42,112 bases of DNA. Source: an uncultured Thermoanaerobaculia bacterium (GTDB taxonomy: Bacteria > Acidobacteriota > UBA4820 > DSQY01). Position 1 is the stretch's first letter. Each line of letters opens with the position of its first letter. This document shows positions 6,653-40,826 of this stretch, one piece after another. The stretch is from contig CAZIBS010000004.1 in assembly GCA_964537405.1 (NCBI GenBank), positions 1-42,112 on the forward strand. Direction: 5' to 3'. The notes beneath the pieces were generated by a model. The model saw only the letters and a list, made by a program, of their open reading frames with translations, did no database searches and was not told the origin of the DNA. The position numbers and the translations under genes were made by a program.

Positions 6653-6671
6653 TCACCGGATTAGCCCCTTT

Positions 6672-9206: not shown

Positions 9207-9302
9207 TACACTCTCCTCTAAGGTTTAGAACCCCATTTTTTCCACATCACGACCCATACCAATTTAGTTTAATATGATTCGGCAAAGAAGTCCATAGGGT
9301 AT

Positions 9303-9402: not shown

Positions 9403-9813
9403 CAACCCGAATCCGCCACCTAACCGAGGGCCGGGGGCGGAGGGTAGGGCTTGGATGCTGGAACCTATCCCGGAATAAGACATGGCCGCGATAGATGGTG
9501 AGGAAGCGAACGAAGGCCGATGTGGTGCATCGGATGAGCAAGACGACAAAACCGGGTGCGCGGCCGGTCCCGCCCCTTCGGGTTGTCCTCCGGCCTGTCG
9601 CCTTCATTGTTCCCCCTTTTCCGAGTGTCCCCGGCACGCGTCGTCGGGACGCCTCGAATCCGTTCCGGCCGGAGGCGCAACGCGCCCGGAACTCCAGACA
9701 GGCGCAACGTGGTAGGCAGGCGAATCCCGGTTCAGGTGGTGGATCCATGAATGCTCCCCGCCTTGCCCCTTTGAGTGTGGTGCGCTATTCTCTCTGGGTC
9801 GGGAAGGGTTCGG

Positions 9814-12081: not shown

Positions 12082-12189
12082 CGCCTCCAACCGGCCTGTT
12101 ATTACCCGGGACGGGAAGAGGTTGACCTTTTCCCGTCCAGCGCTCCTGCCTGCGCCGCAGAACGAAGCGACGCGGGGTATGCCCGATAG

Positions 12190-17546: not shown

Positions 17547-18710
17547 GTGGGCGTGCCTTTTCTGGATTTGACGAGGCAGTACGAAACGATCAGGGAAGAG
17601 ATCGGGGGTGTTCTTACACAAGTGCTTGAAACGCAGCGCTTTGTCCTTGGACGCTTCGTTCGCTCCCTGGAAGAGGAAATCTCCGAATACATCGGAACGG
17701 GCCACGCGATCGGCGTGGCTTCCGGCACCGACGCTCTGCTGCTTGGCCTCAGGGCGCTGGGACTTAAGCGAGGTGAGGGAGTTATCACCTCAACCTTCAC
17801 TTTCTTCGCAACCGCGGGGGCCATCCACAACGCCGGGGGGCACCCCTTCTTTCTGGACATAGACCCGGAAAGCTTCAACCTCTCTCCCGCGGCCGTTGGA
17901 ACCTTCCTACGCGAAGAGTGCGTAAGGGGCGACGATGGATTGCCCGTACATCGCAAAAGCGGGGCGATTGTCAGGGCGATCCTTCCGGTTCACCTCTACG
18001 GCCTTTGCGCCGATATGGACGCACTGAACGACCTCGCGGGTGAATACGGGCTCCGCGTTCTTGAAGACGCCTGCCAGGCTATTGGTTCCACCTATCATCG
18101 GAGGAAGGCCGGCGCACTCGGCGACATCGCCGCCTTCTCTTTCTTCCCCACGAAGAACCTGGGAGGGGCGGGCGACGGCGGCATGGTGACGACCGACGAC
18201 GACGCCCTTGCGCAAAAGCTGGCCCTCCTGAGGGTTCACGGAAGCAGTAAACGCTACATCCACGAAGTCATAGGCTACAATTCCAGGCTCGACGAGCTTC
18301 AGGCGGCGGTACTGGGAGTAAAGCTCAGGCATCTCGACGAGTGGAACGCCGGACGAAATCGTATAGCCGGTTTCTATAGAGAGGGCTTGGCTGACGTCGA
18401 AGGGGTAAGAACACCTTTGTTTCATGAGGGTTTTGGCCAAATCTTCCACCAGTTTGTTATACGAACCACGCACAGGGATGAGTTGAAAGCCTATCTCGAC
18501 GAGAGGGAAATAGGCGCCATGATTTACTACCCGGTCCCACTCCACCTCCAGCCCTGTTTTCATTTCCTGGGCTACCGCGAGGGAGACTTCTCCGAAGCGG
18601 AGTCGGCCTCAAGGGAAGTCCTGGCTCTTCCCATCTTTCCCGAACTGACCGAGGCCGAAGCAACAGAGGTCTGCGATGTTGTCAGGGACTTCCACGCGGG
18701 GAGAGACTGA
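17547..18710 (+). CDS. DegT/DnrJ/EryC1/StrS-family PLP-dependent sugar aminotransferase
   Basis: The N-terminus IPFLDLTRQYETIREEI, the motifs GTDALLLGLRALGL ... ILPVHLYG ... SFFPTKNLGGAGDGGMV (PLP lysine in FPTKN) identify the family. A GTG start has a strong GGAGGTG RBS. Confidence 0.85.
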   Translation: MGVPFLDLTRQYETIREEIGGVLTQVLETQRFVLGRFVRSLEEEISEYIGTGHAIGVASGTDALLLGLRALGLKRGEGVITSTFTFFATAGAIHNAGGHPFFLDIDPESFNLSPAAVGTFLREECVRGDDGLPVHRKSGAIVRAILPVHLYGLCADMDALNDLAGEYGLRVLEDACQAIGSTYHRRKAGALGDIAAFSFFPTKNLGGAGDGGMVTTDDDALAQKLALLRVHGSSKRYIHEVIGYNSRLDELQAAVLGVKLRHLDEWNAGRNRIAGFYREGLADVEGVRTPLFHEGFGQIFHQFVIRTTHRDELKAYLDEREIGAMIYYPVPLHLQPCFHFLGYREGDFSEAESASREVLALPIFPELTEAEATEVCDVVRDFHAGRD

Positions 18711-19228
18711 TGTTGTCGGACCTCTCTAATGCTCACCGGGTTTGGGGAGTCTTCTCCGTCAAGCCGCGCCATGAGAAACTGAATGAGGTCTTTCTCTCGC
18801 AGGAAGGTTTTAACTACTACTGTCCCCGGCTGAAGAGACGCAAGGGAGAGGAGAGCGGACCGCCTCTCTTCCCGGGCTACATCTTCGTACTGCTCTCTCC
18901 CAAGGTGGAACTGGGCCGGGTAAAATTTTTTCCGGGCATGCTGCACCCGCTTCTCTTCGGCGGCCTGCTTGCGTACATCAACCCGGAAGTCGTGGAGTGC
19001 TGGAAGAAGAGGGAGGCCGGCAGGGGCTACCTTGCGCCGGAGCCGAAAGCGGCCTTCAAGGTAGGACAGAAGGTCCGTTTTACCGAGGGCGCTTTCACCG
19101 GTCTCGAAGGCATGGTTCTGGAGGACCTCCCCGCGAAGGATCGAGTGCGCATACTCCTGGAATACCTCAGGATGAGCGTTACCGTTGAAACCGACCGCAC
19201 GGCCGTAAAAATGCCCCCGGCGCGATGA
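18710..19228 (+). CDS. NusG-paralog transcription antiterminator (UpxY/LoaP/RfaH-like specialized NusG)
   Basis: It has an NGN domain (VWGVFSVKPRHEKLNEVFLSQEGFNYYCP ... PLFPGYIFVLL). A KOW motif follows (FKVGQKVRFTEGAFTGLEGMVLE ... RVRILLEYLRMSVTVE). The ATG overlaps the DegT stop (TGATG). Confidence 0.7.
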   Translation: MLSDLSNAHRVWGVFSVKPRHEKLNEVFLSQEGFNYYCPRLKRRKGEESGPPLFPGYIFVLLSPKVELGRVKFFPGMLHPLLFGGLLAYINPEVVECWKKREAGRGYLAPEPKAAFKVGQKVRFTEGAFTGLEGMVLEDLPAKDRVRILLEYLRMSVTVETDRTAVKMPPAR

Positions 19229-19268
19229 TGGCGGAGAAAGTATTCATTCCGCGGATGGAAGAGATGAA

Positions 19269-20306
19269 ATGACAAAAAACTTCGGAGTTGCAATCCTGGC
19301 GGGTGGGAAGGGAACACGCCTCTGGCCGCTCAGTACCGCCGACGAACCCAAGCCCTTCGTTTCCCTCGGGCCCCTGGGGCGTCTCTACAACAGAACGGTC
19401 GAACGCGCGCAGGCACTCAACCCCGCTTTCGTTGCAACGGTAGGCGCCCCCTTGCTGGAAAGATTCTGCGGGGCGCCCGGCGTCGAATTCCTGGCGGAGC
19501 CATGCGCCCGGAACACGGCCGCGGCCGTCGCCCTCGCCGCCGTTTACAGCCGACGCAAACTGGGCGAGGACGGCGGCCTCCTTATCCTGCCGGCGGACCA
19601 CTTCATCAGGGACGCAGCCGCCTTTGCGGCAACCGTACGCAAACTGGCCGGGCTCTGCGATAAGAGGCGATCATTGGGGGTCATGGGCATCACGCCGACC
19701 GGGCCTGAAACGGCCTACGGCTACATTGAGAGCGGTCTTCCCGCCGGGGAGGGCTTCGAAGTGGCGCGGTTCATCGAAAAACCGGACATTGAAGGCGCCG
19801 TAAAACTACTGCGGCAGGGTAATACGACGTGGAACTCGGGAATGTTCTACTTCCCCGTCGGAGTACTTCGGGAGGAGATGCGGCTTTACTGTCCGGAGCC
19901 ATGGAACGCGGCGCAACGGTGGCTCGAAAATGGCGCCCCCGGCTCTTACCAGGCGTTGCGGAAGGTATCGATCGACTACGCCCTCATGGAAAAGAGTCGG
20001 AGGGTTTCAATGGTTGCAGCCGCTTTCGACTGGAGCGATGTCGGTACCTTTCCCTCTCTATATAATATCCTGCCAAAAGACGCGCAGGGCAACGCCGGAT
20101 GGGGTCCAGGCCGCGTCTCGGATTGCCGTAACTGCCTTATCGTAACGCGGCGAAGCAATACCCTGGTAAGGACCATGTCGGAGAGCGTGGTAGTAGAAAC
20201 CGAACACGGGCTGATGGTCAGTCCGATGAAGGGAGCGGCGGAGATTCGTGAAGAGGTGGAGTCGCTGCTCAACGACGCCGGCGGAACGGATAAGGAGAAG
20301 CCATGA
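19269..20306 (+). CDS. Mannose-1-phosphate guanylyltransferase-like sugar-phosphate nucleotidyltransferase
   Basis: It has the NTP-transferase N-terminus (VAILAGGKGTRLWPLS) and the LILPADHFIRD motif. Its length and layout resemble ManC-type enzymes lacking the isomerase domain. Confidence 0.65.
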   Translation: MTKNFGVAILAGGKGTRLWPLSTADEPKPFVSLGPLGRLYNRTVERAQALNPAFVATVGAPLLERFCGAPGVEFLAEPCARNTAAAVALAAVYSRRKLGEDGGLLILPADHFIRDAAAFAATVRKLAGLCDKRRSLGVMGITPTGPETAYGYIESGLPAGEGFEVARFIEKPDIEGAVKLLRQGNTTWNSGMFYFPVGVLREEMRLYCPEPWNAAQRWLENGAPGSYQALRKVSIDYALMEKSRRVSMVAAAFDWSDVGTFPSLYNILPKDAQGNAGWGPGRVSDCRNCLIVTRRSNTLVRTMSESVVVETEHGLMVSPMKGAAEIREEVESLLNDAGGTDKEKP

Positions 20307-21016
20307 AGGGCATAGTGCTTGCGGGCGGAACGGGGTCCCGTCTCTATCCATTGACCAAGGTAACGAACAAACACCTTTTGCCGGTCGGCAAGAAACCGAT
20401 GATCTACTACCCGATCGAGAAGCTCCTGGCGGCGGGAATCAACACGATCCTCATCGTTACCGGAACGGAACACATGGGCTCGGTCGTGAGCCTGCTGGGT
20501 TCGGGGAAAGACTTTGATTGCTCATTTACCTACAAGGTCCAGGACCAGGCGGGAGGAATCGCGCAGGCGCTGAGCCTCGCCGAAAACTTTTCCGGGGGAA
20601 GTTCTATCGCCGTAATACTTGGCGACAACCTCTTTGAGGACAGCCTGACCCCCTTTGTCAGGCACTTTGAAGAGGTGCAGGGTGAAGAGGGCGCCCGCAT
20701 CGTTCTAAAGGGTGTTCCCAACCCCACTCGCTTCGGCGTCGCCACCCTGAAGGGCGACAGGGTTATCAAAATAGAGGAGAAACCAAAGGCGCCGGAAACC
20801 GATTGGGCGGTTACCGGGCTCTACCTCTACGATGCGGAGGTCTTCGAAATAATCCGAACCCTCAAACCCAGCGGGCGCGGGGAACTCGAAATTACCGATG
20901 TAAACAATGCCTACATAGACAGGGGGCTGATGGGCTACGATCTAATGGATGGTTGGTGGACCGACGCCGGCACTTTCGAGAGCCTGAGCCAGGCAAATAA
21001 ACTCATAGGAGAGTGA
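20303..21016 (+). CDS. Short-form glucose-1-phosphate thymidylyltransferase-like nucleotidyltransferase
   Basis: It has MKGIVLAGGTGSRLYPLTKVTNKHLLPVGKKPMIYYPIEKL ... AVILGDNLF and is 237 aa. It sits immediately before the rmlC/rmlD/rmlB-like genes. Its start overlaps the stop of the upstream gene. Confidence 0.7.
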   Translation: MKGIVLAGGTGSRLYPLTKVTNKHLLPVGKKPMIYYPIEKLLAAGINTILIVTGTEHMGSVVSLLGSGKDFDCSFTYKVQDQAGGIAQALSLAENFSGGSSIAVILGDNLFEDSLTPFVRHFEEVQGEEGARIVLKGVPNPTRFGVATLKGDRVIKIEEKPKAPETDWAVTGLYLYDAEVFEIIRTLKPSGRGELEITDVNNAYIDRGLMGYDLMDGWWTDAGTFESLSQANKLIGE

Positions 21017-21019
21017 ACC

Positions 21020-21478
21020 GTGATTCACGACGTGAAGGTAAAGAAACTGACGGTCATTCCCGACGACAGGGGTCGCCTGATGGAAATGCTGAGGGCGGAT
21101 GACGAACTCTTCGACAAATTCGGGCAGGTCTACCTCTCCACCACCTACCCCGGCGTAATTAAAGCGTGGCACTACCACAAGCTGCAGAAAGACAACTTCG
21201 TCTGCGTAAGGGGGATGGTAAAACTTGTCCTGGCCGATACCAGGGACGGTTCCCCATCCAAGGGAGAGGTAGCCGAGTTCGTTATAGGGGAGCACAATCC
21301 CCTCCTTGTGCAGGTTCCGATCGGGGTTTACCACGGCTGGAAGTGCCTCGGAAACCGGGAGTCCTTCGTGGTAAACCTGACAACCAACACTTACAACTAC
21401 GATGATCCCGACGAGTATAGGCTCGATCCCCATAACAACGGCCTGATAGACTACGACTGGGCGACAAAGGATCGTTAA
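21020..21478 (+). CDS. dTDP-4-dehydrorhamnose 3,5-epimerase-like cupin protein
   Basis: The 152-aa cupin has RGMVKLVLADTRDGSPSKGE ... YHGWKCLGNRESFVVNL, resembling RmlC core strands. It has a GTG start and sits between the thymidylyltransferase-like and rmlD genes. Confidence 0.65.
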   Translation: MIHDVKVKKLTVIPDDRGRLMEMLRADDELFDKFGQVYLSTTYPGVIKAWHYHKLQKDNFVCVRGMVKLVLADTRDGSPSKGEVAEFVIGEHNPLLVQVPIGVYHGWKCLGNRESFVVNLTTNTYNYDDPDEYRLDPHNNGLIDYDWATKDR

Positions 21479-22332
21479 TGGCGACGCTCTGCATTTTGGG
21501 CTCAAGGGGAATGTTCGGTAGGGACGCCCTCGGAGTTTTTTCCGGCATGGGTTTCGAGGTGGTTGGCGCGGACCTGCCCGAGGTGGATATCTGCTCCGGA
21601 GACTCGCTGGGCCGCCTTCTTGATGAAAGATCCCCCCGGATCGTGATCAACGCCGCGGCTTACACCGATGTGGATGGGGCCGAAAGCCACAGGAACGAGG
21701 CCTTTCGAATCAACGCGGAGGGCGCTCGAAGAGTGGCGGAAGCCTGCTCCTCGCGGGGGATTTTCCTGGTTTACATCAGCACGGATTACGTTTTTCCCGG
21801 AAATAAGTCTGAGGGCTACCTGCCGGGGGATAAACCCGCGCCGGCCGTCAACGCGTACGGCGAGAGCAAGCTGGAAGGGGAAAGGGCTACGCTGGAGACG
21901 ATGGAAGCGGAGCGGTGCCTTATCTGCAGGACGCAGTGGCTCTATGGCGGCCACGGTAAAAACTTCGTGGACGCGATCCGCGCTCTGGCCGCGGAGAGAG
22001 ACGAACTCCGGGTAGTAAACGACCAGTGGGGAGTGCCAACCTATACAGAAAACCTTGCCCTCCAGATCGGCGCGCTGGTCGGTCTGGGTGTGTCGGGTAT
22101 AACCCACACGGTCGGGGGTGGAGGGCCCATAACCTGGTATCGTTTCGCTTCTGAGATCGTTCGCTTGAGCGGAGCTTCGGCAACCGTGGCGCCCTGTGCT
22201 TCCTCGGCGTTCCCGAGGCCCGCCCCCCGCCCCCGGTATGGATGGCTAAGGACGGAACGCGTACCCTCCGGAGTCATCACTGACTGGAGAAGCGACCTTG
22301 CGGCTTACCTGGCACACGGGCCGAAAAATTGA
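21478..22332 (+). CDS. rmlD: dTDP-4-dehydrorhamnose reductase
   Basis: It has the Rossmann N-terminus (ILGSRGMFGRD), the motifs INAAAYTDVDGAE and YISTDYVF, and the catalytic YGESK. Confidence 0.8.
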   Translation: MATLCILGSRGMFGRDALGVFSGMGFEVVGADLPEVDICSGDSLGRLLDERSPRIVINAAAYTDVDGAESHRNEAFRINAEGARRVAEACSSRGIFLVYISTDYVFPGNKSEGYLPGDKPAPAVNAYGESKLEGERATLETMEAERCLICRTQWLYGGHGKNFVDAIRALAAERDELRVVNDQWGVPTYTENLALQIGALVGLGVSGITHTVGGGGPITWYRFASEIVRLSGASATVAPCASSAFPRPAPRPRYGWLRTERVPSGVITDWRSDLAAYLAHGPKN

Positions 22333-22380
22333 AGAAGCGGCCTTAAGGTTACCGGGCCGCCCCGCAAAGTAAGGAGAACA

Positions 22381-23448
22381 ATGCCCATGAAGACCATCCT
22401 GGTAACCGGCGGAGCCGGATTCATAGGAGCCAATTTTACAAGATACTTGCTGGAATCGAGTCCGAAGTCGCGCGTCGTGGTCCTCGACGCCCTGACCTAC
22501 GCCGGAAACCTCGAGAATCTGTCCGGGCTGGAGGGGCAATATCCGAAGCGTTACCGTTTTGTAAAGGCCGACATCACCGACAGGGATGCCGTGTTGAGGC
22601 TTTTCAGCGACGAATCGGTGACCGGGGTCATCCACTTTGCCGCGGAAAGCCACGTGGACAGGTCTATACTGGAGCCCCTGGCCTTCGTAAAAACCAACGT
22701 GCAGGGTACCGCAAACCTTCTCGACGCCTGCCGGAAATCATGGTCGGCGGGTGAGGAGGGACGCTTTCTACAGGTTTCCACCGACGAAGTCTACGGCGCC
22801 CTGGGGAAAACCGGTTTTTTTTCCGAGAACACCCCGCTGGACCCCAGTTCTCCCTACTCCGCCAGCAAGGCCGCGGCCGATCACCTGGTGTTGGCCTACC
22901 ACAGGACCTTCGGGCTCGACACCGTCATAACCCGTTGCTGCAACAACTATGGTCCCTACCAGTTTCCGGAGAAACTGATTCCACTGATGATAGCGAGGCT
23001 CCTGGACGGTAAGACCCTCCCGGTCTACGGCAAGGGGGAGAACGTGCGCGACTGGATCCACGTTCGGGACCACAACCTCGGGGTTCTTCTCGCCTTCGAA
23101 AAGGGCCGAGCCGGAAGCGTTTACAACCTGGGCGCAAGGTGCGAAAAGAGCAACATAGACCTCGTCAAAGCACTCATTCGCGAAGTGGCGGTCGTAAAGG
23201 AACTGGACCCATCCAGCCTTGAAAAACGGATAACCTTCGTAAAAGACCGTCCCGGCCACGACTGGCGATACGCAATAGATCCATCCAAAGCCGAGAAGGA
23301 ACTCGGCTTTTATCCGGGAGTTTCCTTCGACGAGGGACTTCGCGCAACCGTCGATTGGTACATCGCCAACGAGAGATGGTGGCGCAGGGTTATGAGCGGA
23401 GAGTACCGCACTTTCGTCGAACAACTCTATGGAAAGGGTTCCGGGTGA
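22381..23448 (+). CDS. rmlB: dTDP-glucose 4,6-dehydratase
   Basis: It has ILVTGGAGFIGANF ... VVLDALTYAGNLENL ... HFAAESHVDRS ... STDEVYG ... YSASKAAADHLVLAYHRTFGL. An AAGGAGAACA RBS is present. Confidence 0.9.
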   Translation: MPMKTILVTGGAGFIGANFTRYLLESSPKSRVVVLDALTYAGNLENLSGLEGQYPKRYRFVKADITDRDAVLRLFSDESVTGVIHFAAESHVDRSILEPLAFVKTNVQGTANLLDACRKSWSAGEEGRFLQVSTDEVYGALGKTGFFSENTPLDPSSPYSASKAAADHLVLAYHRTFGLDTVITRCCNNYGPYQFPEKLIPLMIARLLDGKTLPVYGKGENVRDWIHVRDHNLGVLLAFEKGRAGSVYNLGARCEKSNIDLVKALIREVAVVKELDPSSLEKRITFVKDRPGHDWRYAIDPSKAEKELGFYPGVSFDEGLRATVDWYIANERWWRRVMSGEYRTFVEQLYGKGSG

Positions 23449-24452
23449 AACACCTGCTGGTAACCGGCGGCGGCGGTTTTGTCGGCGGCAACTTCGTCCG
23501 CCTCGTTCTAAGAGAACGCCCCTCTCTGAAGGTTACGGTCTTTGACAGCCTCACCGGCCGAAAAAACGCACCCGTACTGGACGAACCGGCAAAACGCTAT
23601 CCGGAGCGCTTCGAACTTATCAGGGGCCACGTTACCAGTAAAGCCGACCTTGAAGCCCTTTTTTCAACGCGCACCTTCGATACGATTGTTCACTTCGCGG
23701 CAAAGAATCCGTCGGGAGACGATATTGTTGACCCCGGGGCTTTCGTGGAGGTCAACATTATTGGCACCGCCATGCTTCTTGAAACCGTTCGCGCTGCGTG
23801 GAAAGAAGGGGAAGGAACCTTCCTGCACCTATCCTCTTACGAGGTTTACGGTTCGGATGAATCACGGGTTTTCACCGAGGGCTCACCCCTGAACCCTTCG
23901 ACACCCTACGCCGCCAGCAAGGCCTCAGCCGACCAACTCACGCTCGCATACCACCGAACCTACAACATGAGAACCCTCGTAACCCGAACGACCAATATCT
24001 ACGGTCCCTACCAATCGAGGGACAAGTTGATTCCCGCCATCGTGGACCGGGTGAAACGCAGAAAAACCATCCCCGTCTTCGGTAACGGTCTCAACCGCCG
24101 CGATTGGATTCACGTTGACGACCACAACCGTGGAGTGCTTTTAACCCTCGAAAAAGGGAAAGCCGGCGGCGTCTACCTCCTCGGGGCCAGGTGCGAAAGA
24201 ACCAACCTCGAACTTGTTCACCGGGTGGCGAGGTTGGCGGCCGCCGGTCTCGGACGGTCGATGGAGGAAGCAGAGGGACTCATAGGTTTCGTCCGGGACC
24301 GCGAAGCCCACGACGCGAGCAGGTCCATGGACCCTTCGGCCACCGAAGAAGCCCTGGGCTTCAAAGCAGCCATTCCCTTCGACGAGGGGCTGAAAGCCAC
24401 GGTGGAGTGGTTGCTGAAAAACTCCCCATACCCGGAACCTATCCGGGAATAA
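23445..24452 (+). CDS. Second NAD-dependent sugar dehydratase/epimerase (RmlB paralog)
   Basis: A GTG start overlaps the rmlB stop (GTGA). It has LLVTGGGGFVGGNF ... HFAAKNPSGDDIVDPGAFVEVNIIGT ... SSYEVYGS ... YAASKASADQLTLAYHRTY. It shows about 45% identity to the upstream RmlB by eye. Confidence 0.75.
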   Translation: MKHLLVTGGGGFVGGNFVRLVLRERPSLKVTVFDSLTGRKNAPVLDEPAKRYPERFELIRGHVTSKADLEALFSTRTFDTIVHFAAKNPSGDDIVDPGAFVEVNIIGTAMLLETVRAAWKEGEGTFLHLSSYEVYGSDESRVFTEGSPLNPSTPYAASKASADQLTLAYHRTYNMRTLVTRTTNIYGPYQSRDKLIPAIVDRVKRRKTIPVFGNGLNRRDWIHVDDHNRGVLLTLEKGKAGGVYLLGARCERTNLELVHRVARLAAAGLGRSMEEAEGLIGFVRDREAHDASRSMDPSATEEALGFKAAIPFDEGLKATVEWLLKNSPYPEPIRE

Positions 24453-25479: not shown

Positions 25480-25648
25480 TTTAGAGCGGGTCTTCCAGCT
25501 AAAAACGAATGGCGCATGGTTCGTAATGCGTTGGGGATTAAGGGGTTACCCTGTCACGGCAAAGTTTCTTCCTGGTGGACACCACGACGCCTGAGTTCCT
25601 GACGTGGGTGGGAAGGCTCACCCCGACGGCTTGATGAGTGCTTGCGGC
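25480..25648 (+). repeat. Copy 2 of the roughly 165-bp repeat, ending about 60 bp upstream of the mpl start
   Basis: See 6207-6371. The two copies are about 85% identical and in opposite orientations. Confidence 0.6.
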
Positions 25649-25709
25649 CATGGGGCCGTCGCCGCAAATTATGCCGGGTAATGGTAAGATGGAAAAATAT
25701 GGAGGCTGG

Positions 25710-27128
25710 ATGCGCGTCCACATGATGGCGATATGCGGAACTGGAATGGGAAGCCTGGCTGGTCTCCTGAAGGCGAGGGGGTTTGAAGTGACCGGCTGCG
25801 ACTCCGCGCTCTATCCTCCCATGAGTGAGGCTTTAACGCGCTACGGAATAGAAGCGCAAACCGGTTTCGACAAATCGCACCTGGATTCCAAGCCGGACCT
25901 CGTAATCATCGGGAACGCGATACACCGAGACAACCCGGAGGCGAAGGCGGCGATAGAGAGGGGAGTAGAGTACCTTTCCATGGCGGAAGCGGTGCGACGC
26001 TTCGCCGTTGATGGGAGGGAAAGCCTCGTTGTCGCGGGAACGCACGGGAAGACGACAACGACGGCCATCGTGGGTTTTCTCCTCAAGGAGGCCGGCCTGG
26101 ATCCGAACGTACTGGTCGGCGGCGTAGTCAGGGGCTGGGAGACTTCCTTCCGGTGGGGAGGGGGTGGGTGGACGGTTCTCGAAGGCGACGAGTACGAGAC
26201 AGCTTTCTTTGACAAGGGACCCAAGTTTCTCCACTACGATCCTTCGATTCTCGTCCTAAACAACATTGAGATGGACCACAGGGACAATTTTGAAAACATG
26301 GGGGAAGTGGAGACGGCTTTTGTGAGGCTCTTCGGGGTTGTGCGCCCGGGTGGGTTGATAATCGCCGGAACAGAGTCGCCGACCGTGGCGAAATTGCTGC
26401 CGATAGCGGGAAGAAGAATTGAGACCTTCGGCCTCTCTGGAGGCGAAGAATGGCGTGCGGAAGCCGTCAATTACGGGGTCAACGCCACTGTCTTCAAGCT
26501 TTGCCACAAGGAAGAGGACCTCGGCGTTTTCGAGAGCCCTCTCTTCGGGCAACACAACCTTCGGAATGTCCTGGCGGCGCTTGCGGCCTCCATAAGTGCC
26601 GGCGCGGACCCCGGCGCGCTGAAGAGCGCCCTTCCGAACTTTGCCGGCGTGAAGAGACGCCAGGAGGTCGTTTACGATGACGGCAGCCTGGCGATAGTCG
26701 ACGACTTCGCCCACCACCCTACGGCCATCGAGGAAACCATCAGGGGATTGAGACAGCGCTACGTCGGAAGAAGGATAGTGGCCTGTTTCGAGCCGCGCTC
26801 TTACACGTGCCGGACGAGGGTTCACCAGAAGGGCCTTCCCGGTGCGCTTTCGCCGGCGGACGAGGTCTTCCTGGGACCCTTCAACCCCCACCCGAAGATT
26901 CCGGAAGACGAGAGACTGGACCTTTCGAAGGTGGCCTCGGAACTAGAGGGGATGGGAGTGGCGACTACGATAATGGATAGCTTTGATGCCTACTATGGTA
27001 TTCTGGACGCCTGCCGTGCCGCTCCGGCTCTTCTTGTTTTTTTCTCGTCCGGTCCCTTCGACGACCTCCCGGCGCGCCTGGCGGCCAGGGCTTCCTTGCT
27101 TAACGGGGGTGTTGTTGGCAGGGACTAG
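25710..27128 (+). CDS. mpl: UDP-N-acetylmuramate:L-alanyl-gamma-D-glutamyl-meso-diaminopimelate ligase (murein peptide ligase)
   Basis: The Mpl-type N-terminus is present (MRVHMMAICGTGMGSLAGLLKARGFEVTGCD), as are the Mur ligase P-loop (GTHGKTTTTAIVGFLL) and the DDFAHHP motif. The GGAGG RBS is 7 nt before ATG 25710. Confidence 0.85.
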   Translation: MRVHMMAICGTGMGSLAGLLKARGFEVTGCDSALYPPMSEALTRYGIEAQTGFDKSHLDSKPDLVIIGNAIHRDNPEAKAAIERGVEYLSMAEAVRRFAVDGRESLVVAGTHGKTTTTAIVGFLLKEAGLDPNVLVGGVVRGWETSFRWGGGGWTVLEGDEYETAFFDKGPKFLHYDPSILVLNNIEMDHRDNFENMGEVETAFVRLFGVVRPGGLIIAGTESPTVAKLLPIAGRRIETFGLSGGEEWRAEAVNYGVNATVFKLCHKEEDLGVFESPLFGQHNLRNVLAALAASISAGADPGALKSALPNFAGVKRRQEVVYDDGSLAIVDDFAHHPTAIEETIRGLRQRYVGRRIVACFEPRSYTCRTRVHQKGLPGALSPADEVFLGPFNPHPKIPEDERLDLSKVASELEGMGVATTIMDSFDAYYGILDACRAAPALLVFFSSGPFDDLPARLAARASLLNGGVVGRD

Positions 27129-27137
27129 GAGCTTTTC

Positions 27138-27851
27138 ATGGAAGTGAAGTGCGCCAACTGCGGGGCGAAGATTCCGCTCAAGGTGGACGTCCCCTTTCTT
27201 TCGTGCCCCTTCTGCGCTTCGACCCTCTACCTTGACCGCTCCCACACCTTTAACCACTATCTTCTGAAACCCTCCATCTCGAAGACGCGAGCCCTGGATC
27301 TCCTCAAAGAGGAGCTGGAGAAGAGGGAACTGTCCCGGCTTCCCGTTCTGGAAACCAGGGGAAAACTTCTCCCTTTTTGGAGAAAACGCGGCGGGGAAAG
27401 TCTTGAAACCATACCGGCTTTTCCGCCGCCCCACCCCGCTCTGGAAGGCTACCACCTTCCCCCCTCCGGCGCGGAACTATACGATGAAGCGCCGGAAGGG
27501 TTTGAAGAGGTTGCCTGTTCGGAGTCCTCTTCGGCCCATTGGGAGAGCGGCGGGGACACCAATGCCTTCAGTCTTTTCCATATTCCCTTCTACGAAATAA
27601 CCACCGGTTCGCACAGGGTTAGGTACACAATTTGGATAGACGCGGTTTCAGGTCGGCTCTTTCTTGACCAGGCGCCGCCTTCGCTGACGGGGAAGATATC
27701 GTCCCGCTTCTGGGGCGCCCTCGTGGTCCTGTTTCTTCTTTTTTTCGGCGAAGCGATCGTGCTTCCGGGAGTATGGGCTTTTGTGGCCGTAGTGGTTACC
27801 GCGGCCGGCGTTTTTCCCCTGCTGGCGAACTTTTTTGAGGGGGGCGGCTGA
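27138..27851 (+). CDS. Uncharacterized zinc-ribbon protein with C-terminal double TM anchor (paralog 1 of 3)
   Basis: It has an N-terminal CxxC-x14-CxxC (CANCGAKIPLKVDVPFLSCPFC) and the motif LLPFWRKRGG. A DAVSGRLFLD beta-hairpin-like motif and two C-terminal TM helices follow. An AGGAG RBS is present. Confidence 0.6.
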   Translation: MEVKCANCGAKIPLKVDVPFLSCPFCASTLYLDRSHTFNHYLLKPSISKTRALDLLKEELEKRELSRLPVLETRGKLLPFWRKRGGESLETIPAFPPPHPALEGYHLPPSGAELYDEAPEGFEEVACSESSSAHWESGGDTNAFSLFHIPFYEITTGSHRVRYTIWIDAVSGRLFLDQAPPSLTGKISSRFWGALVVLFLLFFGEAIVLPGVWAFVAVVVTAAGVFPLLANFFEGGG

Positions 27852-29002
27852 TGGCCGGGCCCAGAGCGTTATCGTGTCCGTCGTGCGGGGGCGCTGTTTT
27901 GCCTCCACTGGGGTCGAGAAAGACCGGGTGCGAATTCTGCGGCAAGGCTTTCTACTACGCGGGCAAAGACTTTCTGCCGCGTTTGGCTCTGCGGTCGAAT
28001 CTCAGCGAGGAAGGGCTTCACGACGTCTGCATGGACCTTTTCAAAGGGCTCGCCGTGCCCGGGGATCTCGCTCGAAGGGCGCTTCTTCTGCAGAAGCACA
28101 GGATGTATCTACCCTTCTACTTTATGACCGGCAAGCGCGGCGGGATTTTGCAGACCAACAAAGAGCGCATCGACCATTCGTGGAAGCCGCTTAGCGTTGT
28201 AGATAGAATGGCGGCCGGTTCGGGAGAAATCTCCGTCAGCCCCGTCCCTCACCGTCGGCCGGAAGTGATCGTGGAAGAGGACAGCAGCGTGGTCCTGGGG
28301 GACTTTCAGTATCTCTACCAGGCCGTTTCGCTTGAAAACTGGAACTTCTCCGACGCCGACCTTGAAGCTTCCGTGCTTTCAAGGCTTGGAGAAGCCAGGC
28401 CCGTAACCCTGGGAGAACTTGTAAAAAGTGGGAAGATAGCGGACGTCTCCATTCCCCTGGAGACGGTCATAGCAAAGGGAGTAGGCACGGGGGGTACGAG
28501 GGCCGGTGCGTTGGAGGTCCTGGAACTCACGGTTGTTGTCGTATACGTTCCCGTGCGGATAGTCACGTTCCGCTACGGACAGGCCATCTTCAACGTGGTA
28601 GTGGAGGAGTTGGAAGGCCGCGTTGTCTCGGGCAGTTTGCCCTTCCGGAGGGGCTGGGCCTTCCTGGGCGGGCTGACTCTCATCGCAGGTTTAGGTTTCT
28701 TTATCGGACAGTTTGCCCGCACCATAATTGAGATGGTTTCCGAAACCCCCGCCCAAGCGAACAGCTATCTCGAAACCGCAAAGATCCTCGGGGTTCTGTG
28801 CGTCGTTATTGCTCTTGTTGCCACGGCCGGATTGAACGCGGCCTGGCTCTTCTTCAGGACGCCTTACTTCCTGAAGCTTACGAGCAAGGGCGGTAGGCTC
28901 GAATCGCCAATAGAGCTTCCCCGCAGTCCTCTCAACCCGGTAAACGCGCTCATCAAAGCATTCTTCAGGCGGGCTTTACCGGTGGAAAGGGGAGACGAAT
29001 GA
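27851..29002 (+). CDS. Uncharacterized zinc-ribbon membrane protein (paralog 2 of 3)
   Basis: Its ATG overlaps the upstream stop (TGATGG). It has CPSCGG-x14-CEFCG and YLPFYFMTGKRGG. An LEGRVVSGSLPF motif and two TM helices follow. Confidence 0.6.
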   Translation: MAGPRALSCPSCGGAVLPPLGSRKTGCEFCGKAFYYAGKDFLPRLALRSNLSEEGLHDVCMDLFKGLAVPGDLARRALLLQKHRMYLPFYFMTGKRGGILQTNKERIDHSWKPLSVVDRMAAGSGEISVSPVPHRRPEVIVEEDSSVVLGDFQYLYQAVSLENWNFSDADLEASVLSRLGEARPVTLGELVKSGKIADVSIPLETVIAKGVGTGGTRAGALEVLELTVVVVYVPVRIVTFRYGQAIFNVVVEELEGRVVSGSLPFRRGWAFLGGLTLIAGLGFFIGQFARTIIEMVSETPAQANSYLETAKILGVLCVVIALVATAGLNAAWLFFRTPYFLKLTSKGGRLESPIELPRSPLNPVNALIKAFFRRALPVERGDE

Positions 29003-29628
29003 TGGTGGAGCGAAAAGAACGCCTTCTCATTCCCCTTACCTGCCCGGAGTGCGGGGACGACCTCGACGGAGGAAACGGCGCCCGTATATACCTCTGCCGT
29101 GAATGCTCCTACGCCCTCTTCATGGAAAGACCGGGGGAGAAGTACCCCGTACGCTACGTAAAGGCGCACGTAAAAGCGGCTTCTCAGAGGGTCTATGTTC
29201 CTTTTTGGAGAGTCACCGGAACCTTCAAGGCGTCGGGCGCGAATAAGAAACAGTCTATCGGATACGGCAGGATACGGTCCCTGGGGCCGCTGTACTTCCC
29301 GGCTTTCTGGAGTCCCAGGCTCGGCTACTTCGATAACCTTACGCTGACCTACTCGAAGGAGGAGGCGAAGATGGCCTTTGAAGAGGGCCGGGACGACGCG
29401 ATTCTCGACGGAATAAGGGACCCGGCCATTCTGACCGAAATGGCGCGCCTTACCTGGCTGGGATACCTCGACCGCTTCAGCGACGTTACGGGCCTGGAAG
29501 GTCGTTACGAAGTCAAGGATATTCTTTACGCGGGAGTCCCCTTCTTTCCTGACGGAGACCATTTTATGGACGGAGTTTCGGGGGTGCGCATTCCTAAAGG
29601 GTTTCTACCCCTCGGAAGCGGCGAATGA
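28999..29628 (+). CDS. Uncharacterized soluble zinc-ribbon protein (paralog 3 of 3)
   Basis: Its ATG overlaps the upstream stop (AATGATGG). It has CPECGD-x13-CRECS, YVPFWRVTG, and a C-terminal DGVSGVRIP motif. No TM segment is present. Confidence 0.6.
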   Translation: MMVERKERLLIPLTCPECGDDLDGGNGARIYLCRECSYALFMERPGEKYPVRYVKAHVKAASQRVYVPFWRVTGTFKASGANKKQSIGYGRIRSLGPLYFPAFWSPRLGYFDNLTLTYSKEEAKMAFEEGRDDAILDGIRDPAILTEMARLTWLGYLDRFSDVTGLEGRYEVKDILYAGVPFFPDGDHFMDGVSGVRIPKGFLPLGSGE

Positions 29629-37413: not shown

Positions 37414-38089
37414 CTACTTCCAGGTGACGTCGTAGATGCAGTGCGTTTCAATACTGCCTGCCAGAACCGCACACTTAGTGTGGTTCACCTCGATACCCTT
37501 CGCGCCGAGCTTTTCAAGGCCGCCGTAGAGATAGCCGATGACGGTGGAACAGTCAATAGGACCGGCCTTCTCCAGGTCCTTGTTGTCGAGCATGATCTTG
37601 AAGTGCTTCTCCGAGAGTTGTTCCGATACAAGGCGCTCGGCCGCCTTTGCTCCATAGCACTGGCGGTAAATCGTCGCAAAGGCGCCCGTCAGCCATTCTT
37701 CAGGCTTTTTGCCGACGAAGAAAACGTGAAAAACCCCCTCCGCCTGGCGGTGCGCGTTAAAGCGTCCCGCTTCGAATGCAATGCACGGTCTCTTAGAACT
37801 GGTAGTGTAGAGTTGCGAGCCAGGTCCCTGCAGAACCACCGTCATGGCTTTCAGGAAGAATTTGTCAACCCAGTCAGGCAAGTATGAGCTGGCAAGGATT
37901 GCACCGCCGAAGAGACGCTTTTCGAGTTGCTCTCCCCTTTCGTTCCTCTTTGCCAGGCGTACCGCTTCCCGCCGGATGGCCTCCTGCGTATCCTCGAAGT
38001 TAAGGCCCTTTTTCTTGCATATCTCCTGAATAAAGAGCGTTCTGCCCTTAATGAAGTCCCCGAGTTGGTGTTCCTTTTCCTTGTCTCTC
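37414..38089 (-). CDS. Conserved hypothetical protein (about 225 aa, soluble, Cys-containing)
   Basis: An ORF with a GGAGGAG RBS before ATG 38089 (MRDKEKEHQLGDF ...). No motif I can confidently assign. Confidence 0.45.
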
Positions 38090-38173
38090 ATGGTTTCTCC
38101 TCCGCCGTTCCAAATAAACCAACAGAAGTTATTATACTCCTCCCTGGAGAGAAGAATACAACGCTTCCTAAAT

Positions 38174-38270
38174 CCCCAATCCCTTGATGGGTAAAACACC
38201 GTAGGTGCGAAACCGTGGACCGCGGAGTCTTTTCCGACTTTCCGCATCACCCGTCGCGGGATTGGGGACT
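38174..38270 (+). repeat. MITE-like roughly 100-bp element, copy B (perfect 10-bp TIR CCCCAATCCC / GGGATTGGGG)
   Basis: It aligns with 9303-9402. It overlaps the last 24 nt plus stop codon of the minus-strand radical-SAM gene. Confidence 0.65.
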
Positions 38271-40826
38271 TTCCCGCACGCTTTCGAACTCGAGGCCGAG
38301 GCGGGCAAGGGAAAGCCTTGAAGATTCGGGGCCGGGACAGAGAACCTTGACGAGACTCATAAAACCGCCGCGACGAAGGCGTACCGTAAGGCCCCCTTCA
38401 TCCATGGAAAGGGAAAGCACGCGTTCTTTTATATCGTAGCGCCTGGTTTTTTTACCCGTGCGCGTCACCATCCATTCGGCGGCAGCGTTAAGAGCTGATA
38501 CCCTTTCGAGAAAGCCGGTTCGTTCCCCGGAATCGAGGCCTTCGATTCCAACGTGGTAGAGCTGTACGGTGAGTTCGGAGAGTGACGGCGCACCCGGGGG
38601 AACCACCGTGAGCATTTCGGGAACGATTCCGGAAGGAAGGTTTCCCTTGAGCTTTTCAAGCAGGAGGCGCCTGTCGCCGACTATCCCCACGAACTCCCCC
38701 CACTCCTCACGGCCCTCCACGCCGAGCGGAAGCGGGGCGGGAAAAACCACCTTCGGCATCGGATGGTAGCCCTTCGAGTATGCCAGTAGGACGCCCACCC
38801 TCCTGAGAGCGCGGACAAGGGTTTCCACAAAGTCCAAGTGGCCGAGGAAGCGCGCTAATCCCTCCTTTCGGTAGCGGAGCCGAAAAGTGGCGAAGGAACG
38901 GCTGTTGGCGGGGGAGGTTCTCCGGATCGATGCGTCGGGAAGCGGCCTTGCGTATGCGCCGGCAACGCAGGCCTTGGCGAAGGAGCCACAACCAAGACAA
39001 TCAGCGGGTCCGCAGGTCTTCGTGGTCTCACCCTTCAACGCCCTTTGCCACTCATTCCGGAGGAACTTTTTATGGACGCCGACGTCTATAATATCCCAGG
39101 GCAAAGGTTCGTTCTCTCTCCTTTGTCGGTAGATGTAATCCCCGGGCGCCACCCCGCACCGCTCGAAGGCCTCTCTCCACGCGTCCCGTTTAAAGTGTTC
39201 CGACCACGCATCGAGGCGGCAGCCCAGCGAAACCGCCTCTTCCAGGACCTTCGACAGCCGCCTGTCTCCCAGCGAAAAAACACCTTCAACCACGGTTGCA
39301 TCCACGTCGTGCCACTTGAAAGCAATCGGACCACGCAGCATCTTCTTAAGATAACTCTGCTTCTCCCTGAGAACCGCGGCGGGCGCCATCGGATGCCACT
39401 GAAACGGGGTGAATGGTTTAGGCACGAATGAGGATACCGAAACGGTCGCCCTCGGGTGGGAAGCCCCCGCCTCCTTCGCCGTTTTAACAACCAGCCCGGC
39501 GAGGCGCACTATTGCCTCTACGTCTTCATCGGTTTCCAGCGGAAGGCCCATCATGAAGTAGAGCTTTACGAGCTTGACTCCGGCGGAAAAGAGAACGGTG
39601 GAGGCGTTGCATACGTCCTCTTCGGTTATTTTCTTGTTGACAATATCCCGGAGACGCTGGGAACCAGCCTCCGGCGCAATCGTGAAGCTCGTCTTCCTGC
39701 CCGAGGAGAGAGCTTCAACGAGCCGGCGCGTCAGCGAATTCACCCTGAGGCTCGGCATGGCAACGGAGACGCGCCGGTCTTCTCCCTCGTCGGCTATCGT
39801 CTCAATAAGCCTCTCCACCCCTTCGTATTCGCCCGCGTTCAGGCTGAGGAGAGTGACTTCGTTGAAGCCGGTCTTTTCGAGTCCCTCCTCCACCGATTCC
39901 AGAATCGAAGAGGGGGAACGGCGGCGCTCGGGGCGGTAGACGTAGCCCGCCTGGCAGAAACGGCACCCCGCGGAACAACCCCTGGCTATTTCTACGGAGT
40001 AACGGTCATGCACGACCTCGTGGTGCGGAACAATGACATCGGTGGGAAAAGGAAAACGGTCCATATCTTTAAGAAGACGCTTCTTGACCGGGAAGGGAAC
40101 GCCCTTTTCAAGCGGTGCCGTGACCATCTCCATGGCCGTCTCGGGATCAACCGCCGTCTCGTACATGGCCGGAACATAGGCCCCCTCCACCTTTGCCAGC
40201 TCCCGCCAGAGTTCCCTCCTGCTCTTGCCTTTCATGGTCCTGGCCACTTCGCAGAGTTCAAGAAATCCTTCCTCGCCGTCTCCTACCAAGATCGCGTCCA
40301 TGAAGGGAGCGACGGGCTCGGGATTGCAGGCGCACGGGCCTCCCGCGACCACTACCGGGTGGTCCGGCCCCCTCAGGGCCGCCCTCAATGGAATGCGTCC
40401 CATGTTGAGCATGTGGAGAATGTTTGCGTAGTCGAGTTCGAATTGAAGCGAAAAGCCTACAACGTCGAAGTCGCACAGCGGACGCTTCGATTCGAGGCCG
40501 TAGAGGGGCAGGCCGCGGGCGGCCATGGCCTCCTCCATATCGGGCATCACCATGAAGACCCTTTCCGCCCAGAGCCACGGTTGCTCGTTTAAAATCTTGT
40601 AGAGAATCTTCATACCCATGGTACTCATGGCAATTTCGTAGGCGTCGGGAAAGGCGATTGCGACGTGAAACATTTCCGGGCCGTCGTTCTTTACGACCTC
40701 GTTCACCTCCCCTCCCGTGTAACGGGTGGGCTTGGTTACGGTAGTAAGAAAGGAGAGATCCACGGTTCGCTCCACGCTTTGAGACCTCCGCCCATGCTTG
40801 TTCACGGCGGGTGCTCCGAGCGTCAA
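38247..40826 (-). CDS. B12-binding-domain radical SAM protein fused to a C-terminal radical-SAM-associated (DUF2344-like) domain
   Basis: It has the N-terminus KPTRYTGGEVNEVVK ... VAIAFPDAYEIAMSTMGMKILY and the radical-SAM cluster motif ARGCSAGCRFCQAGYV. The C-terminal roughly 250 aa (FRLRYRKEGLARFLGHLDFVETLVRALRR ...) resemble the partner protein usually encoded next to this radical-SAM family. The start is ambiguous, with TTG at 40826 or GTG near 40764. Confidence 0.75.
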   Translation of the reverse strand: MTLGAPAVNKHGRRSQSVERTVDLSFLTTVTKPTRYTGGEVNEVVKNDGPEMFHVAIAFPDAYEIAMSTMGMKILYKILNEQPWLWAERVFMVMPDMEEAMAARGLPLYGLESKRPLCDFDVVGFSLQFELDYANILHMLNMGRIPLRAALRGPDHPVVVAGGPCACNPEPVAPFMDAILVGDGEEGFLELCEVARTMKGKSRRELWRELAKVEGAYVPAMYETAVDPETAMEMVTAPLEKGVPFPVKKRLLKDMDRFPFPTDVIVPHHEVVHDRYSVEIARGCSAGCRFCQAGYVYRPERRRSPSSILESVEEGLEKTGFNEVTLLSLNAGEYEGVERLIETIADEGEDRRVSVAMPSLRVNSLTRRLVEALSSGRKTSFTIAPEAGSQRLRDIVNKKITEEDVCNASTVLFSAGVKLVKLYFMMGLPLETDEDVEAIVRLAGLVVKTAKEAGASHPRATVSVSSFVPKPFTPFQWHPMAPAAVLREKQSYLKKMLRGPIAFKWHDVDATVVEGVFSLGDRRLSKVLEEAVSLGCRLDAWSEHFKRDAWREAFERCGVAPGDYIYRQRRENEPLPWDIIDVGVHKKFLRNEWQRALKGETTKTCGPADCLGCGSFAKACVAGAYARPLPDASIRRTSPANSRSFATFRLRYRKEGLARFLGHLDFVETLVRALRRVGVLLAYSKGYHPMPKVVFPAPLPLGVEGREEWGEFVGIVGDRRLLLEKLKGNLPSGIVPEMLTVVPPGAPSLSELTVQLYHVGIEGLDSGERTGFLERVSALNAAAEWMVTRTGKKTRRYDIKERVLSLSMDEGGLTVRLRRGGFMSLVKVLCPGPESSRLSLARLGLEFESVRESPQSRDG

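Follow-up and report, generated by a model that had tools for sequence, protein, structure and literature searches.

We identify, in a 42,112-nucleotide stretch of DNA from an uncultured Thermoanaerobaculia bacterium (Acidobacteriota; contig CAZIBS010000004.1; hereafter the window), a compact three-gene module, A-B-C, that is undescribed and occurs in several bacterial phyla. Profile-profile comparison shows the three products to be anciently diverged paralogues of one another and members of the YdjG/SamG superfamily, sharing a plan in which an N-terminal C4 zinc ribbon precedes an alpha/beta core on two long beta-hairpins, each opening with an hP[FV][WY] motif. By analogy with Bacillus subtilis, these paralogues might together serve SPFH/ESCRT-III-type machinery as its membrane anchor, scaffold, or sensor, an interpretation that we regard as evenly poised.

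The three open reading frames lie on the forward strand, as do their parts and the mpl-like gene given below, precisely where the first-pass annotation had placed them: gene A at 27138..27851 (237 aa), gene B at 27851..29002 (383 aa), and gene C at 28999..29628 (209 aa). Gene A encodes the shortest paralogue, with a zinc ribbon, a helix, two hPF[WY] beta-hairpins, and a C-terminal transmembrane (TM) hairpin; gene B encodes the full-length YdjG-like paralogue, in which the zinc ribbon is followed by the entire core, middle insert included, and then by a TM hairpin and a conserved cytoplasmic tail; and gene C encodes a soluble, TM-free paralogue made up of a zinc ribbon, a hairpin, a helical insert, and a second hairpin. 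The start and stop overlaps described earlier as TGATG and AATGATG were also recovered, with one base of TGATG at the A/B junction (27849..27853) common to the A stop and the B start, and with ATGA at the B/C junction (28999..29002) forming a 4-nt overlap of the B stop with the C start. Related loci carry a 4-nt ATGA overlap between A and B in 21 of 23 cases, whereas the B-C overlap and the gene order A-B-C are each found in 24/24, and both overlap and order are kept across phyla, an arrangement that would fit co-translation and a hetero-oligomer. Gene A had been placed close downstream of mpl, and indeed the stop codon of the upstream Mur-ligase gene (TAG, 27126-27128) is followed by a spacer of 9 nt, while an AGGAG Shine-Dalgarno-like site read directly in the sequence (27127..27131) overlaps that stop codon and sits 6 nt upstream of the gene A ATG.

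Each N-terminus carries a CxxC/CxxC zinc ribbon, at aa 5-26 in A (CANC-x14-CPFC, spaced C5-x2-C8-x14-C23-x2-C26; 27150..27215), aa 9-30 in B (C9..C12-x14-C27..C30; 27875..27940), and aa 15-36 in C (C15..C18-x14-C33..C36; 29041..29106), though the spacer is x14 in all three rather than the x13/14 first described. All four cysteines are invariant in every full-length member of the B family, as they are in the 21 sequences of the A family and the 27 of the C family. Scans of A, B, and C against Pfam, NCBIfam, and PADLOC returned only sub-threshold zinc-ribbon matches, and when the PDB was searched by sequence with the profile of each family, only RpoP-type or ribosomal ribbons came up, with the A ribbon matching solely RpoP-type ribbons in PDB and NCBIfam.

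Following the ribbon, an aromatic motif reads LLPFW in A (aa 77-81), YLPFY in B (aa 86-90), and YVPFW in C (aa 66-70), its P and F being invariant across the three families. The first-pass annotation had located this motif 50-60 residues beyond the ribbon in each protein, which holds for A (53 residues from the last ribbon cysteine) and B (58) but not for C, where the distance is only 32 and the intervening helix is lacking. Family alignments delimit the first hairpin motif of A (LLPFWRKRGG, aa 77-86; 27366..27395), and its second hairpin (HIPFY...WIDAVSGRLF, aa 148-176; 27579..27665) aligns to B and C and has a weak PepSY-like match. For B, the alignment and an AF2 model place a first long beta-hairpin with an invariant R-x-Y-x-PFY...GKRGG motif at aa 78-100 (28082..28150), alignments place a helix-containing middle region (EEDSRVVLGDFRY..), which is found in YdjG-like proteins and missing from A, at aa 101-218 (28151..28504), and the AF2 model and hhalign place a second beta-sheet (VYVPV...EELEGRVVSGSLPF) at aa 219-264 (28505..28642). 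The corresponding parts of C are a first beta-hairpin with YVPFWRVTG (aa 44-80; 29128..29238) and a helical insert that includes a conserved ARLTWLxYLDR helix (aa 83-158; 29245..29472), both from the AF2 model and alignment, and a second hairpin (YAGVPFF...DGVSGVRIP, aa 166-199; 29494..29595) from the AF2 model and hhalign. A second hPF[YF] motif stands upstream of the second hairpin (IPFY at 149 in A, VPFF at 180 in C, and VPV at 233 in B). Of the late D/E-x-VSG-(R/V) motif proposed for all three, DAVSGR of A and DGVSGV of C do align, but the counterpart in B is EELEGR and not the nearby VVSG. Conservation in the family alignments peaks in the beta-hairpin core and in the B tail, not on the ribbon surface. 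The AF2 model of C reached a pLDDT of 88.4 and a pTM of 0.86 and that of B a pLDDT of 71.7, and a significant PDB neighbour was found for neither model.

Membrane segments follow the earlier proposal of two membrane-anchored members and one soluble one, as judged by hydropathy for all three proteins and by the AF2 models for B and C. Hydropathy places a TM hairpin at aa 185-235 of A (27690..27842) that is conserved in the A family, and in B, the AF2 model and hydropathy place one with helices at aa 267-297 and 305-336 (28649..28858; hydrophobic blocks by hydropathy, 268-293 and 304-336), while the same analysis found no hydrophobic block in C (maximum KD19, 0.51). The TM hairpin of B leads into a cytoplasmic tail (28859..28999) recognizable in the alignment by invariant R-T-P and P-x2-P motifs (R336, T337, P338, P360, and P363). 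From the zinc ribbons, together with positive charge on the flanks of the TM hairpins, we infer that all soluble parts of A, B, and C are cytoplasmic.

Paralogy of the three proteins, first suspected from their shared motifs, was borne out by comparing the family alignments A3 (A, 21 sequences), A2 (B), and A4 (C) with hhalign, which paired A with B at 96.7% (E 3.9e-10), A with C at 85% (E 6.2e-6), and B with C at 91% (E 1.1e-6), the shared motifs aligning except for the shifted late motif of B. Word-index homologue searches returned Thermoanaerobaculia relatives only, and a metagenome scan with the C profile returned close relatives only; an exhaustive profile search with the merged A+B alignment against 1.84 billion proteins retrieved a superfamily of 3,748 cluster representatives at E<=1e-3 (612 at E<=1e-10), the top matches of which fall into three recurrent architectures. 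The initial remark that the architecture was not recognized as a named family holds for Pfam, NCBIfam, and PADLOC, none of which has a model covering the core of A/B/C, yet all three proteins are members of this very large superfamily. The A+B profile retrieved YdjG-like proteins at E 1e-16 to 1e-19; they make up a double-ribbon branch, whose members combine the core with two zinc ribbons and a single TM helix. Against the YdjG-like branch (15 proteins), hhalign aligned B over 265 columns from the ribbon to TM1 (99.3%, E 2.5e-20), and aligned A over 84 columns (98.1%, E 1.3e-13) and C over 74 columns (95.1%, E 3e-8), in both cases across the ribbon and first hairpin. The YdjG/SamG branch of the superfamily has already been studied in B. 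subtilis. Our link to B. subtilis YdjG draws on its published architecture and operon order, and on a putative YdjG sequence, used as a lead only, whose ends fit the published primers and which hits the double-ribbon branch with an E-value of 1e-71.

Ordered A-B-C triplets with overlapping or near-abutting genes were found at 24 Thermoanaerobaculia loci and also at L025 (Lernaellota), at L042 (a Myxococcales MAG), and on four further contigs: L026, L043, L044, and the P0059 locus, the last by gene table only. At each of these loci other than P0059, the best profile match of every member is its positional counterpart, and the order, with a single copy of each type, persists between phyla in which the proteins share about 20-30% identity. 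At L043, the gene for a Band_7_1 protein with a double zinc ribbon (E 1.8e-64) stops 14 nt short of A, and three Band_7 genes and NfeD adjoin the triplet at the P0059 locus; of the seven independent triplet contexts, five lack an SPFH neighbour. Among the 27 window ORFs scanned with Pfam or NCBIfam, no TPM, Band_7_1, or PspA match lies near the triplet, and the sole SPFH gene (1330-2745) is 24 kb off and matches general Band_7 (PF01145) only. TPM_phosphatase likewise had no match in the gene tables of L001-L003, L025, L026, L042-L044, and the P0059 locus. Outside the triplets, L029 (Lachnospiraceae) encodes a zinc-ribbon protein, then TPM, then Band_7_1, which is the ydjG-ydjH-ydjI order of B. 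subtilis; a TPM gene adjoins the double-ribbon loci L027 and L030; and the double-ribbon gene directly follows an SPFH gene in RefSeq Enterococcus, Comamonas, Vibrio, Paracoccus, and Tsukamurella. The double-ribbon branch is YdjG-like by architecture and context, and it matches the published description of YdjG as two zinc ribbons, a YpeB-related domain, and a TM segment (Ravi et al. for the core), of YdjH as TPM, and of YdjI as Band-7 plus a zinc ribbon. Gene context shows that the YdjG/SamG family is generally paired with SPFH genes.

In B. subtilis, deletion of ydjG or ydjH abolishes YdjI and PspA foci, YdjG interacts with YdjH, and SamI is recruited by SamG-SamH; this role in SPFH/PspA membrane recruitment comes from B. 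subtilis genetics and two-hybrid data only. Because YdjG and YdjH are needed there for membrane placement of the flotillin-like SPFH protein YdjI and of PspA, and because the L043 triplet has an SPFH neighbour, our preferred reading is the anchor, scaffold, or sensor named at the outset. On this reading, B retains the whole YdjG-type core and adds a TM hairpin and conserved tail, A is a trimmed version with a TM hairpin, and C is a soluble derivative with a helical insert. The genes presumably act as one translationally coupled unit of conserved order, and their products most likely form a hetero-oligomer attached to the membrane from its cytoplasmic side, which would serve SPFH/ESCRT-III-type membrane maintenance or the response to envelope stress. 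It is also possible, if distinctly less probable, that A-B-C is an ancient three-subunit membrane machine, spread over many phyla and based on a fold without a solved relative, with a function distinct from the B. subtilis SamGHI pathway; B would then be a YdjG-like anchor and A and C specialized partners replacing the TPM protein, for example in a ring- or lattice-forming scaffold that organizes envelope biogenesis enzymes at the inner membrane face.

The neighbouring genes raise the alternative of a cell-wall module in which a membrane complex, co-expressed with Mpl, would link the membrane to murein-peptide recycling or to the building of peptidoglycan. The upstream gene (25638..27128) is a Mur-ligase of mpl-like type (TIGR01081 mpl, 338 bits against a cut-off of 388.7; murC, 287), and the order mpl-A-B-C-fadD-recG is kept in 19 of the 24 Thermoanaerobaculia loci, with two more cut at a contig end, and down to about 38% identity in B. 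The short spacer and overlapping Shine-Dalgarno-like site speak for co-expression, as does the mpl-A gap, where a terminator-like site was not found beyond the level of shuffled sequence, and B. subtilis ydjG and ydjH mutants mislocalize peptidoglycan synthesis under alkaline shock. However, only a single order-level group within Thermoanaerobaculia shows this synteny, which is missing in Thermoanaerobaculum aquaticum, in UBA4820, in Lernaellota, in the Myxococcales MAG, and at the remaining triplet loci. The loci without it include L020, L022, L023, L025, L026, and L042-L044. The non-mpl loci instead have unrelated housekeeping neighbours, the deepest Thermoanaerobaculia branches (L022 and L023) having a TPR gene upstream and an EpmA-like gene downstream. 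Triplets recur next to mpl in some relatives but not in the deepest branches or in other phyla, and the mpl adjacency is a lineage-specific context outside the conserved module. A functional link to mpl and fatty-acid activation is not supported, and the restriction of the synteny to one lineage led us to reject functional coupling with mpl or fadD; the cell-wall module as a whole is rather unlikely.

That A, B, and C work separately from one another or as homo-oligomers, being merely co-located duplicates, we also consider unlikely: solo family members do exist (L027 and L028), and SamG is predicted to be a monomer by AlphaFold 3 in the literature, but the order, single copy per type, and overlaps persist at the low identities given above, each position has its own orthologous clade, and C, having lost its anchor, would need partners to reach the membrane. 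Membrane-tethered zinc-ribbon regulators that bind a partner, be it nucleic acid, transcription factor, or translation factor, and sequester or release it at the membrane in an anti-sigma-like manner would account for database similarities being only to RpoP/Rpo12, TFIIB-type, ribosomal, or RNA-binding zinc ribbons, for a regulatory role suggested by Popp et al. for the YdjG ribbon, and for dksA, rsfS, rlmH, and obg lying upstream in L022 and L023. Yet all ribbon matches are below curated cut-offs and generic for C4 knuckles, an HTH or other nucleic-acid-binding domain is absent, no regulator gene is consistently adjacent, and the strongest conservation is away from the ribbon surface, which leaves such regulators quite improbable. 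Very improbable indeed is anti-phage defence or mobile-element cargo, for although the operon is small, tightly coupled, and composed of unannotated proteins, and some family members have AbiEii, AIPR, and BrnA genes in their vicinity, PADLOC gave no match for A or B and only a 9.4-bit chance match for C, tblastn with B matched neither plasmids nor any of 50,697 phage records, and the synteny among housekeeping genes is stable, with integrases and repeats not found.

The YdjG/SamG family comprises thousands of 50%-identity clusters from Bacillota, Pseudomonadota, Actinomycetota, Spirochaetota, Acidobacteriota, Lernaellota, and a Myxococcales-labelled MAG, with no Pfam or NCBIfam core model and no solved structure, and its experimental record consists only of the B. 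subtilis membrane anchor for an SPFH protein and PspA. What is new here is a conserved three-paralogue operon placed in this family, which gives an annotation handle for thousands of "hypothetical" or "RpoP-like" proteins, subunit-specialized natural variants for studying how such anchors assemble, and a testable connection of uncultured phyla with membrane maintenance of the SPFH/ESCRT-III kind.

Among known systems, PepSY/YpeB domains (PF03413) resemble the core in having a helix followed by antiparallel strands that end in a D-x-x-(S/T)-G-x-h turn, and the YdjG-type core has been termed "YpeB-related, NTF2-like" in the literature. Pfam PepSY matched A at aa 150-173 with E 0.054 and 14.2 bits, not reaching the gathering cut-off of 24, and matched neither B nor C, while two distant family members gave sub-threshold matches at E about 1e-3. 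PspB/PspC and LiaF/LiaI are likewise small, sit in the membrane, and recruit or regulate a peripheral protein that remodels membranes, and a functional analogy to PspA/IM30 anchors has been proposed for SamGH; the likeness is one of function only, without sequence or fold relationship, and their domains were not detected here. The closest system is YdjG/SamG itself, with which the triplet shares the N-terminal C4 zinc ribbon, the alpha/beta core that carries a pair of hP[FV]W hairpins, and, as a TM hairpin in A and B but not in C, the C-terminal membrane anchor, and one triplet (L043) adjoins a YdjI-type SPFH gene. Unlike in B. subtilis, the TPM partner (YdjH) occurs in no triplet locus, so partner binding through YdjH is not simply transferable, and a pspA or Band_7_1 gene is not near the window triplet. 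YdjG has two ribbons and a single TM segment, whereas A, B, and C have one ribbon each, with a TM hairpin in A and B and none in C, B carries an extra conserved cytoplasmic tail, and the single protein there corresponds to three specialized paralogues here.

Three forward-strand open reading frames, A (27138-27851, 237 aa), B (27851-29002, 383 aa) and C (28999-29628, 209 aa), make up the feature that the first-pass annotation had described as a coupled cassette of paralogous zinc-ribbon proteins, and that overall description was essentially right, the three-gene feature being real. Each protein begins at its N-terminus with a CxxC-x14-CxxC ribbon, with a spacer of 14 in all three instead of the 13 or 14 originally given, followed by an hPF[WY] motif (LLPFW in A, YLPFY in B, YVPFW in C) that had been placed 50-60 residues past the ribbon throughout but in C lies only about 32 residues away, because C is without the intervening helix. 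A second hairpin opens with IPFY (A), VPV (B), or VPFF (C) and closes with DAVSGR, EELEGR, or DGVSGV, respectively. A single long hydrophobic block spans aa 185-235 of A, TM helices occupy 267-297 and 305-336 in an AF2 model of B, and no hydrophobic segment was found in C. The TGATG junction has one base common to the A stop and the B start, the B/C overlap is ATGA, and 9 nt separate the stop of the upstream mpl-like Mur ligase gene from the A start, with the AGGAG site upstream of A overlapping that stop.

Other parts of the window hold a 779-aa ORF (2821-5160, +) whose first half (aa 30-388) is a class I/II aminotransferase and whose C-terminal ~390 aa have no Pfam match, possibly a fusion or an ORF called too long; a sugar-nucleotide cluster (17547-24452, +) with DegT aminotransferase, two NTP_transferase, RmlC-like (152 aa, also matching Polysacc_synt_C), RmlD, and two 4,6-dehydratase-like genes; and an 858-aa protein with Radical_SAM_N2, Radical_SAM, and DUF2344 domains (38247-40826, -), adjoined by a 277-aa ORF without a Pfam match (37414-38250).

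Pairwise BLASTP among A, B, and C was marginal, and we therefore collected homologues for each protein and compared the family profiles pairwise. A matched B at 96.7% (E 3.9e-10) across the ribbon, helix, and both hairpins and into the beginning of the TM region; A matched C at 85% (E 6.2e-6), spanning both hairpins; and B matched C at 91% (E 1.1e-6), limited to the N-terminal part. The shared motifs thus align in all three comparisons, and the proposal that the genes are paralogous stands, as judged from these profiles. Pfam, NCBIfam, and PADLOC returned for A, B, and C only sub-threshold zinc-ribbon matches and, in A alone, a 14-bit PepSY match, while PDB sequence searches recovered RpoP-like or ribosomal ribbons only and no recognisably related solved structure.

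An exhaustive HMMER search of 1.84 billion cluster representatives with a merged A+B profile yielded 3,748 proteins at E<=1e-3 (612 at E<=1e-10), the best 150 of which fall into three architectures: B-like (330-415 aa; ribbon near residue 9, PFW near 87, TM hairpin), A-like (240-256 aa), and double-ribbon (350-456 aa; two ribbons, core, single C-terminal TM). In the source records, members are annotated as 'hypothetical', 'RPC12/RpoP' or 'LSD1 zinc finger', or erroneously as 'primosomal protein N'', and a Pfam and NCBIfam scan of 58 family proteins matched ribbon models only.

The double-ribbon branch is YdjG-like, and its architecture and operon evidence stand apart from the sequence that we take to be Bacillus subtilis YdjG, which matches the branch at E 1e-71, serves as a lead only, and agrees at both ends (ten N-terminal and five C-terminal residues) with the cloning primers printed in PMC8581546. 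A TPM_phosphatase-domain gene comes next after the double-ribbon gene in L027, L029 (a Lachnospiraceae genome), and L030 (Treponema), and in L029 a Band_7_1 SPFH gene lies directly past it, giving the order zinc-ribbon protein, TPM, SPFH. The double-ribbon gene is directly downstream of an 'SPFH domain-containing protein' gene in RefSeq/GenBank replicons from Enterococcus gallinarum, Comamonas, Vibrio coralliilyticus, Paracoccus, and Tsukamurella, and in Enterococcus a TPM gene also comes after it. These loci have the same gene composition as the B. subtilis pspA-ydjGHI (samGHI) operon, in which YdjH is a TPM protein and the Band-7 protein has a C-terminal zinc ribbon (Ravi et al.). Downstream of the ydjG-ydjH-ydjI-like genes of L029, at 9970-12159, are genes for a DUF4428 protein and a LiaF-TM protein, followed by one for a 7TM histidine kinase, which fits an envelope-stress neighbourhood.

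Aligned by hhalign to 15 YdjG-like proteins, B matched at 99.3% (E 2.5e-20, 265 columns) from the YdjG-type second ribbon through the entire core to the first TM helix, whereas A (98.1%, E 1.3e-13) and C (95.1%, E 3e-8) matched over the ribbon and first hairpin. B is thus the full-length YdjG-like member, A a shortened one, and C a soluble derivative. The architecture, not recognised as a named family in the first-pass annotation, indeed has no Pfam or NCBIfam model beyond the ribbons, but it is no orphan: A-B-C belongs to the YdjG/SamG superfamily as a variant with three paralogues. The superfamily is large, has neither a curated model nor a structure, and has been characterised in B. subtilis only. 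We found no description of the conserved triplet form in the literature searched.

The order A, B, C was identical in 24/24 related loci from Acidobacteriota MAGs labelled Thermoanaerobaculia or 'Aminicenantes' (Thermoanaerobaculum aquaticum among them), with a 4-nt A/B overlap in 21/23 and a B/C overlap in all. An mpl-A-B-C-fadD-recG(-lnt) array is retained in most of the 24 and absent from the most divergent; in T. aquaticum (L022) and UBA4820 (L023) the context is instead obg-nadD-rsfS-(sigma-54 activator)-rlmH-dksA-TPR-A-B-C-epmA-like-corC. Conservation applies to the triplet as a unit and not to its association with mpl. Individual loci show two tandem FadD-like acyl-CoA synthetase genes downstream where others have one (L016, 4017-7753), and an apparently frameshifted C with B extended by ~96 nt, probably an assembly error in that MAG (L021, 7162-7788). 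The SPOUT methyltransferase gene rlmH lies just upstream of family members in two unrelated lineages (L022/L023, 3032-3530; L027, 4512-4991), which may be coincidence.

Beyond these 24 loci, triplets in the same order, with overlapping or near-abutting genes and each member best matching its positional counterpart's profile, occur in 'Candidatus Alcyoniella australis' (phylum Lernaellota; L025), a 169-kb contig (L026), a Myxococcales MAG (L042), a 2.97-Mb metagenomic contig (L043), and L044; a seventh context, P0059, shows the same layout (268/397/211 aa) in its gene table only. The triplication is therefore ancient and older than the split of these lineages. Triplet neighbours vary widely among distant loci, and no triplet locus has a TPM gene. 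Two of these contexts are informative. The L043 gene that ends 14 nt upstream of A (5160-6218) encodes a protein with Band_7_1 and a double zinc ribbon (E 1.8e-64), the architecture of YdjI, and in P0059 three Band_7 genes and nfeD adjoin the triplet on the opposite strand. Directly after C in L043 comes a gene (8867-9460) for a 197-aa protein that combines a zinc ribbon at its N-terminus with an FHA/YscD-like domain, and a 176-aa coiled-coil-looking ORF without a Pfam match overlaps upstream of the YdjI-type gene. Upstream of the L026 triplet is a gene (5884-7044) whose product, unusually, joins the C-terminal portion of an FHIPEP (FlhA-like) domain to TPR repeats; an ORF of 65 aa with a double zinc ribbon precedes it. 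In L022 and L023, too, the gene before the triplet is a TPR gene.

Established are three homologous subunits encoded by tightly coupled genes, two with TM hairpins bearing basic residues on both sides and one soluble. All soluble parts would lie on the cytoplasmic side: zinc ribbons are cytoplasmic modules, and the R/K clusters that flank the hairpin, ahead of TM1 and past TM2, agree with the positive-inside rule. The proteins would assemble in fixed proportion, with C brought to the membrane via A and/or B. The ribbons could bind nucleic acid or a regulator, a reading with no specific support, and it is unlikely that the triplet is of defence or mobile origin. A cell-wall role tied to Mpl is possible and takes some colour from the B. 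subtilis phenotype, in which ydjG/ydjH mutants deregulate peptidoglycan synthesis under alkaline shock (PMC8581546), but mpl adjacency is confined to one lineage.

Most likely, by analogy with YdjG, YdjH, and SamGH, the A-B-C complex would serve SPFH/ESCRT-III-type membrane maintenance as a membrane anchor, scaffold, or sensor, and A and C would replace the absent TPM partner. Evidence for such a function in the window's own lineage is thin: no SPFH, TPM, or PspA gene adjoins the triplet, and the only Band_7 gene among the 27 ORFs of the window that were scanned (1330-2745, +; 471 aa, a flotillin-like length; PF01145, E 4e-26), 24 kb upstream, matches the general Band_7 model and not the Band_7_1 (YdjI) model. 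In B. subtilis, YdjG binds YdjH, and neither the SPFH protein YdjI nor PspA forms membrane foci unless both genes are present (PMC8581546); SamGH has been proposed elsewhere in the literature to be a stress-sensing membrane complex held back by SamI.
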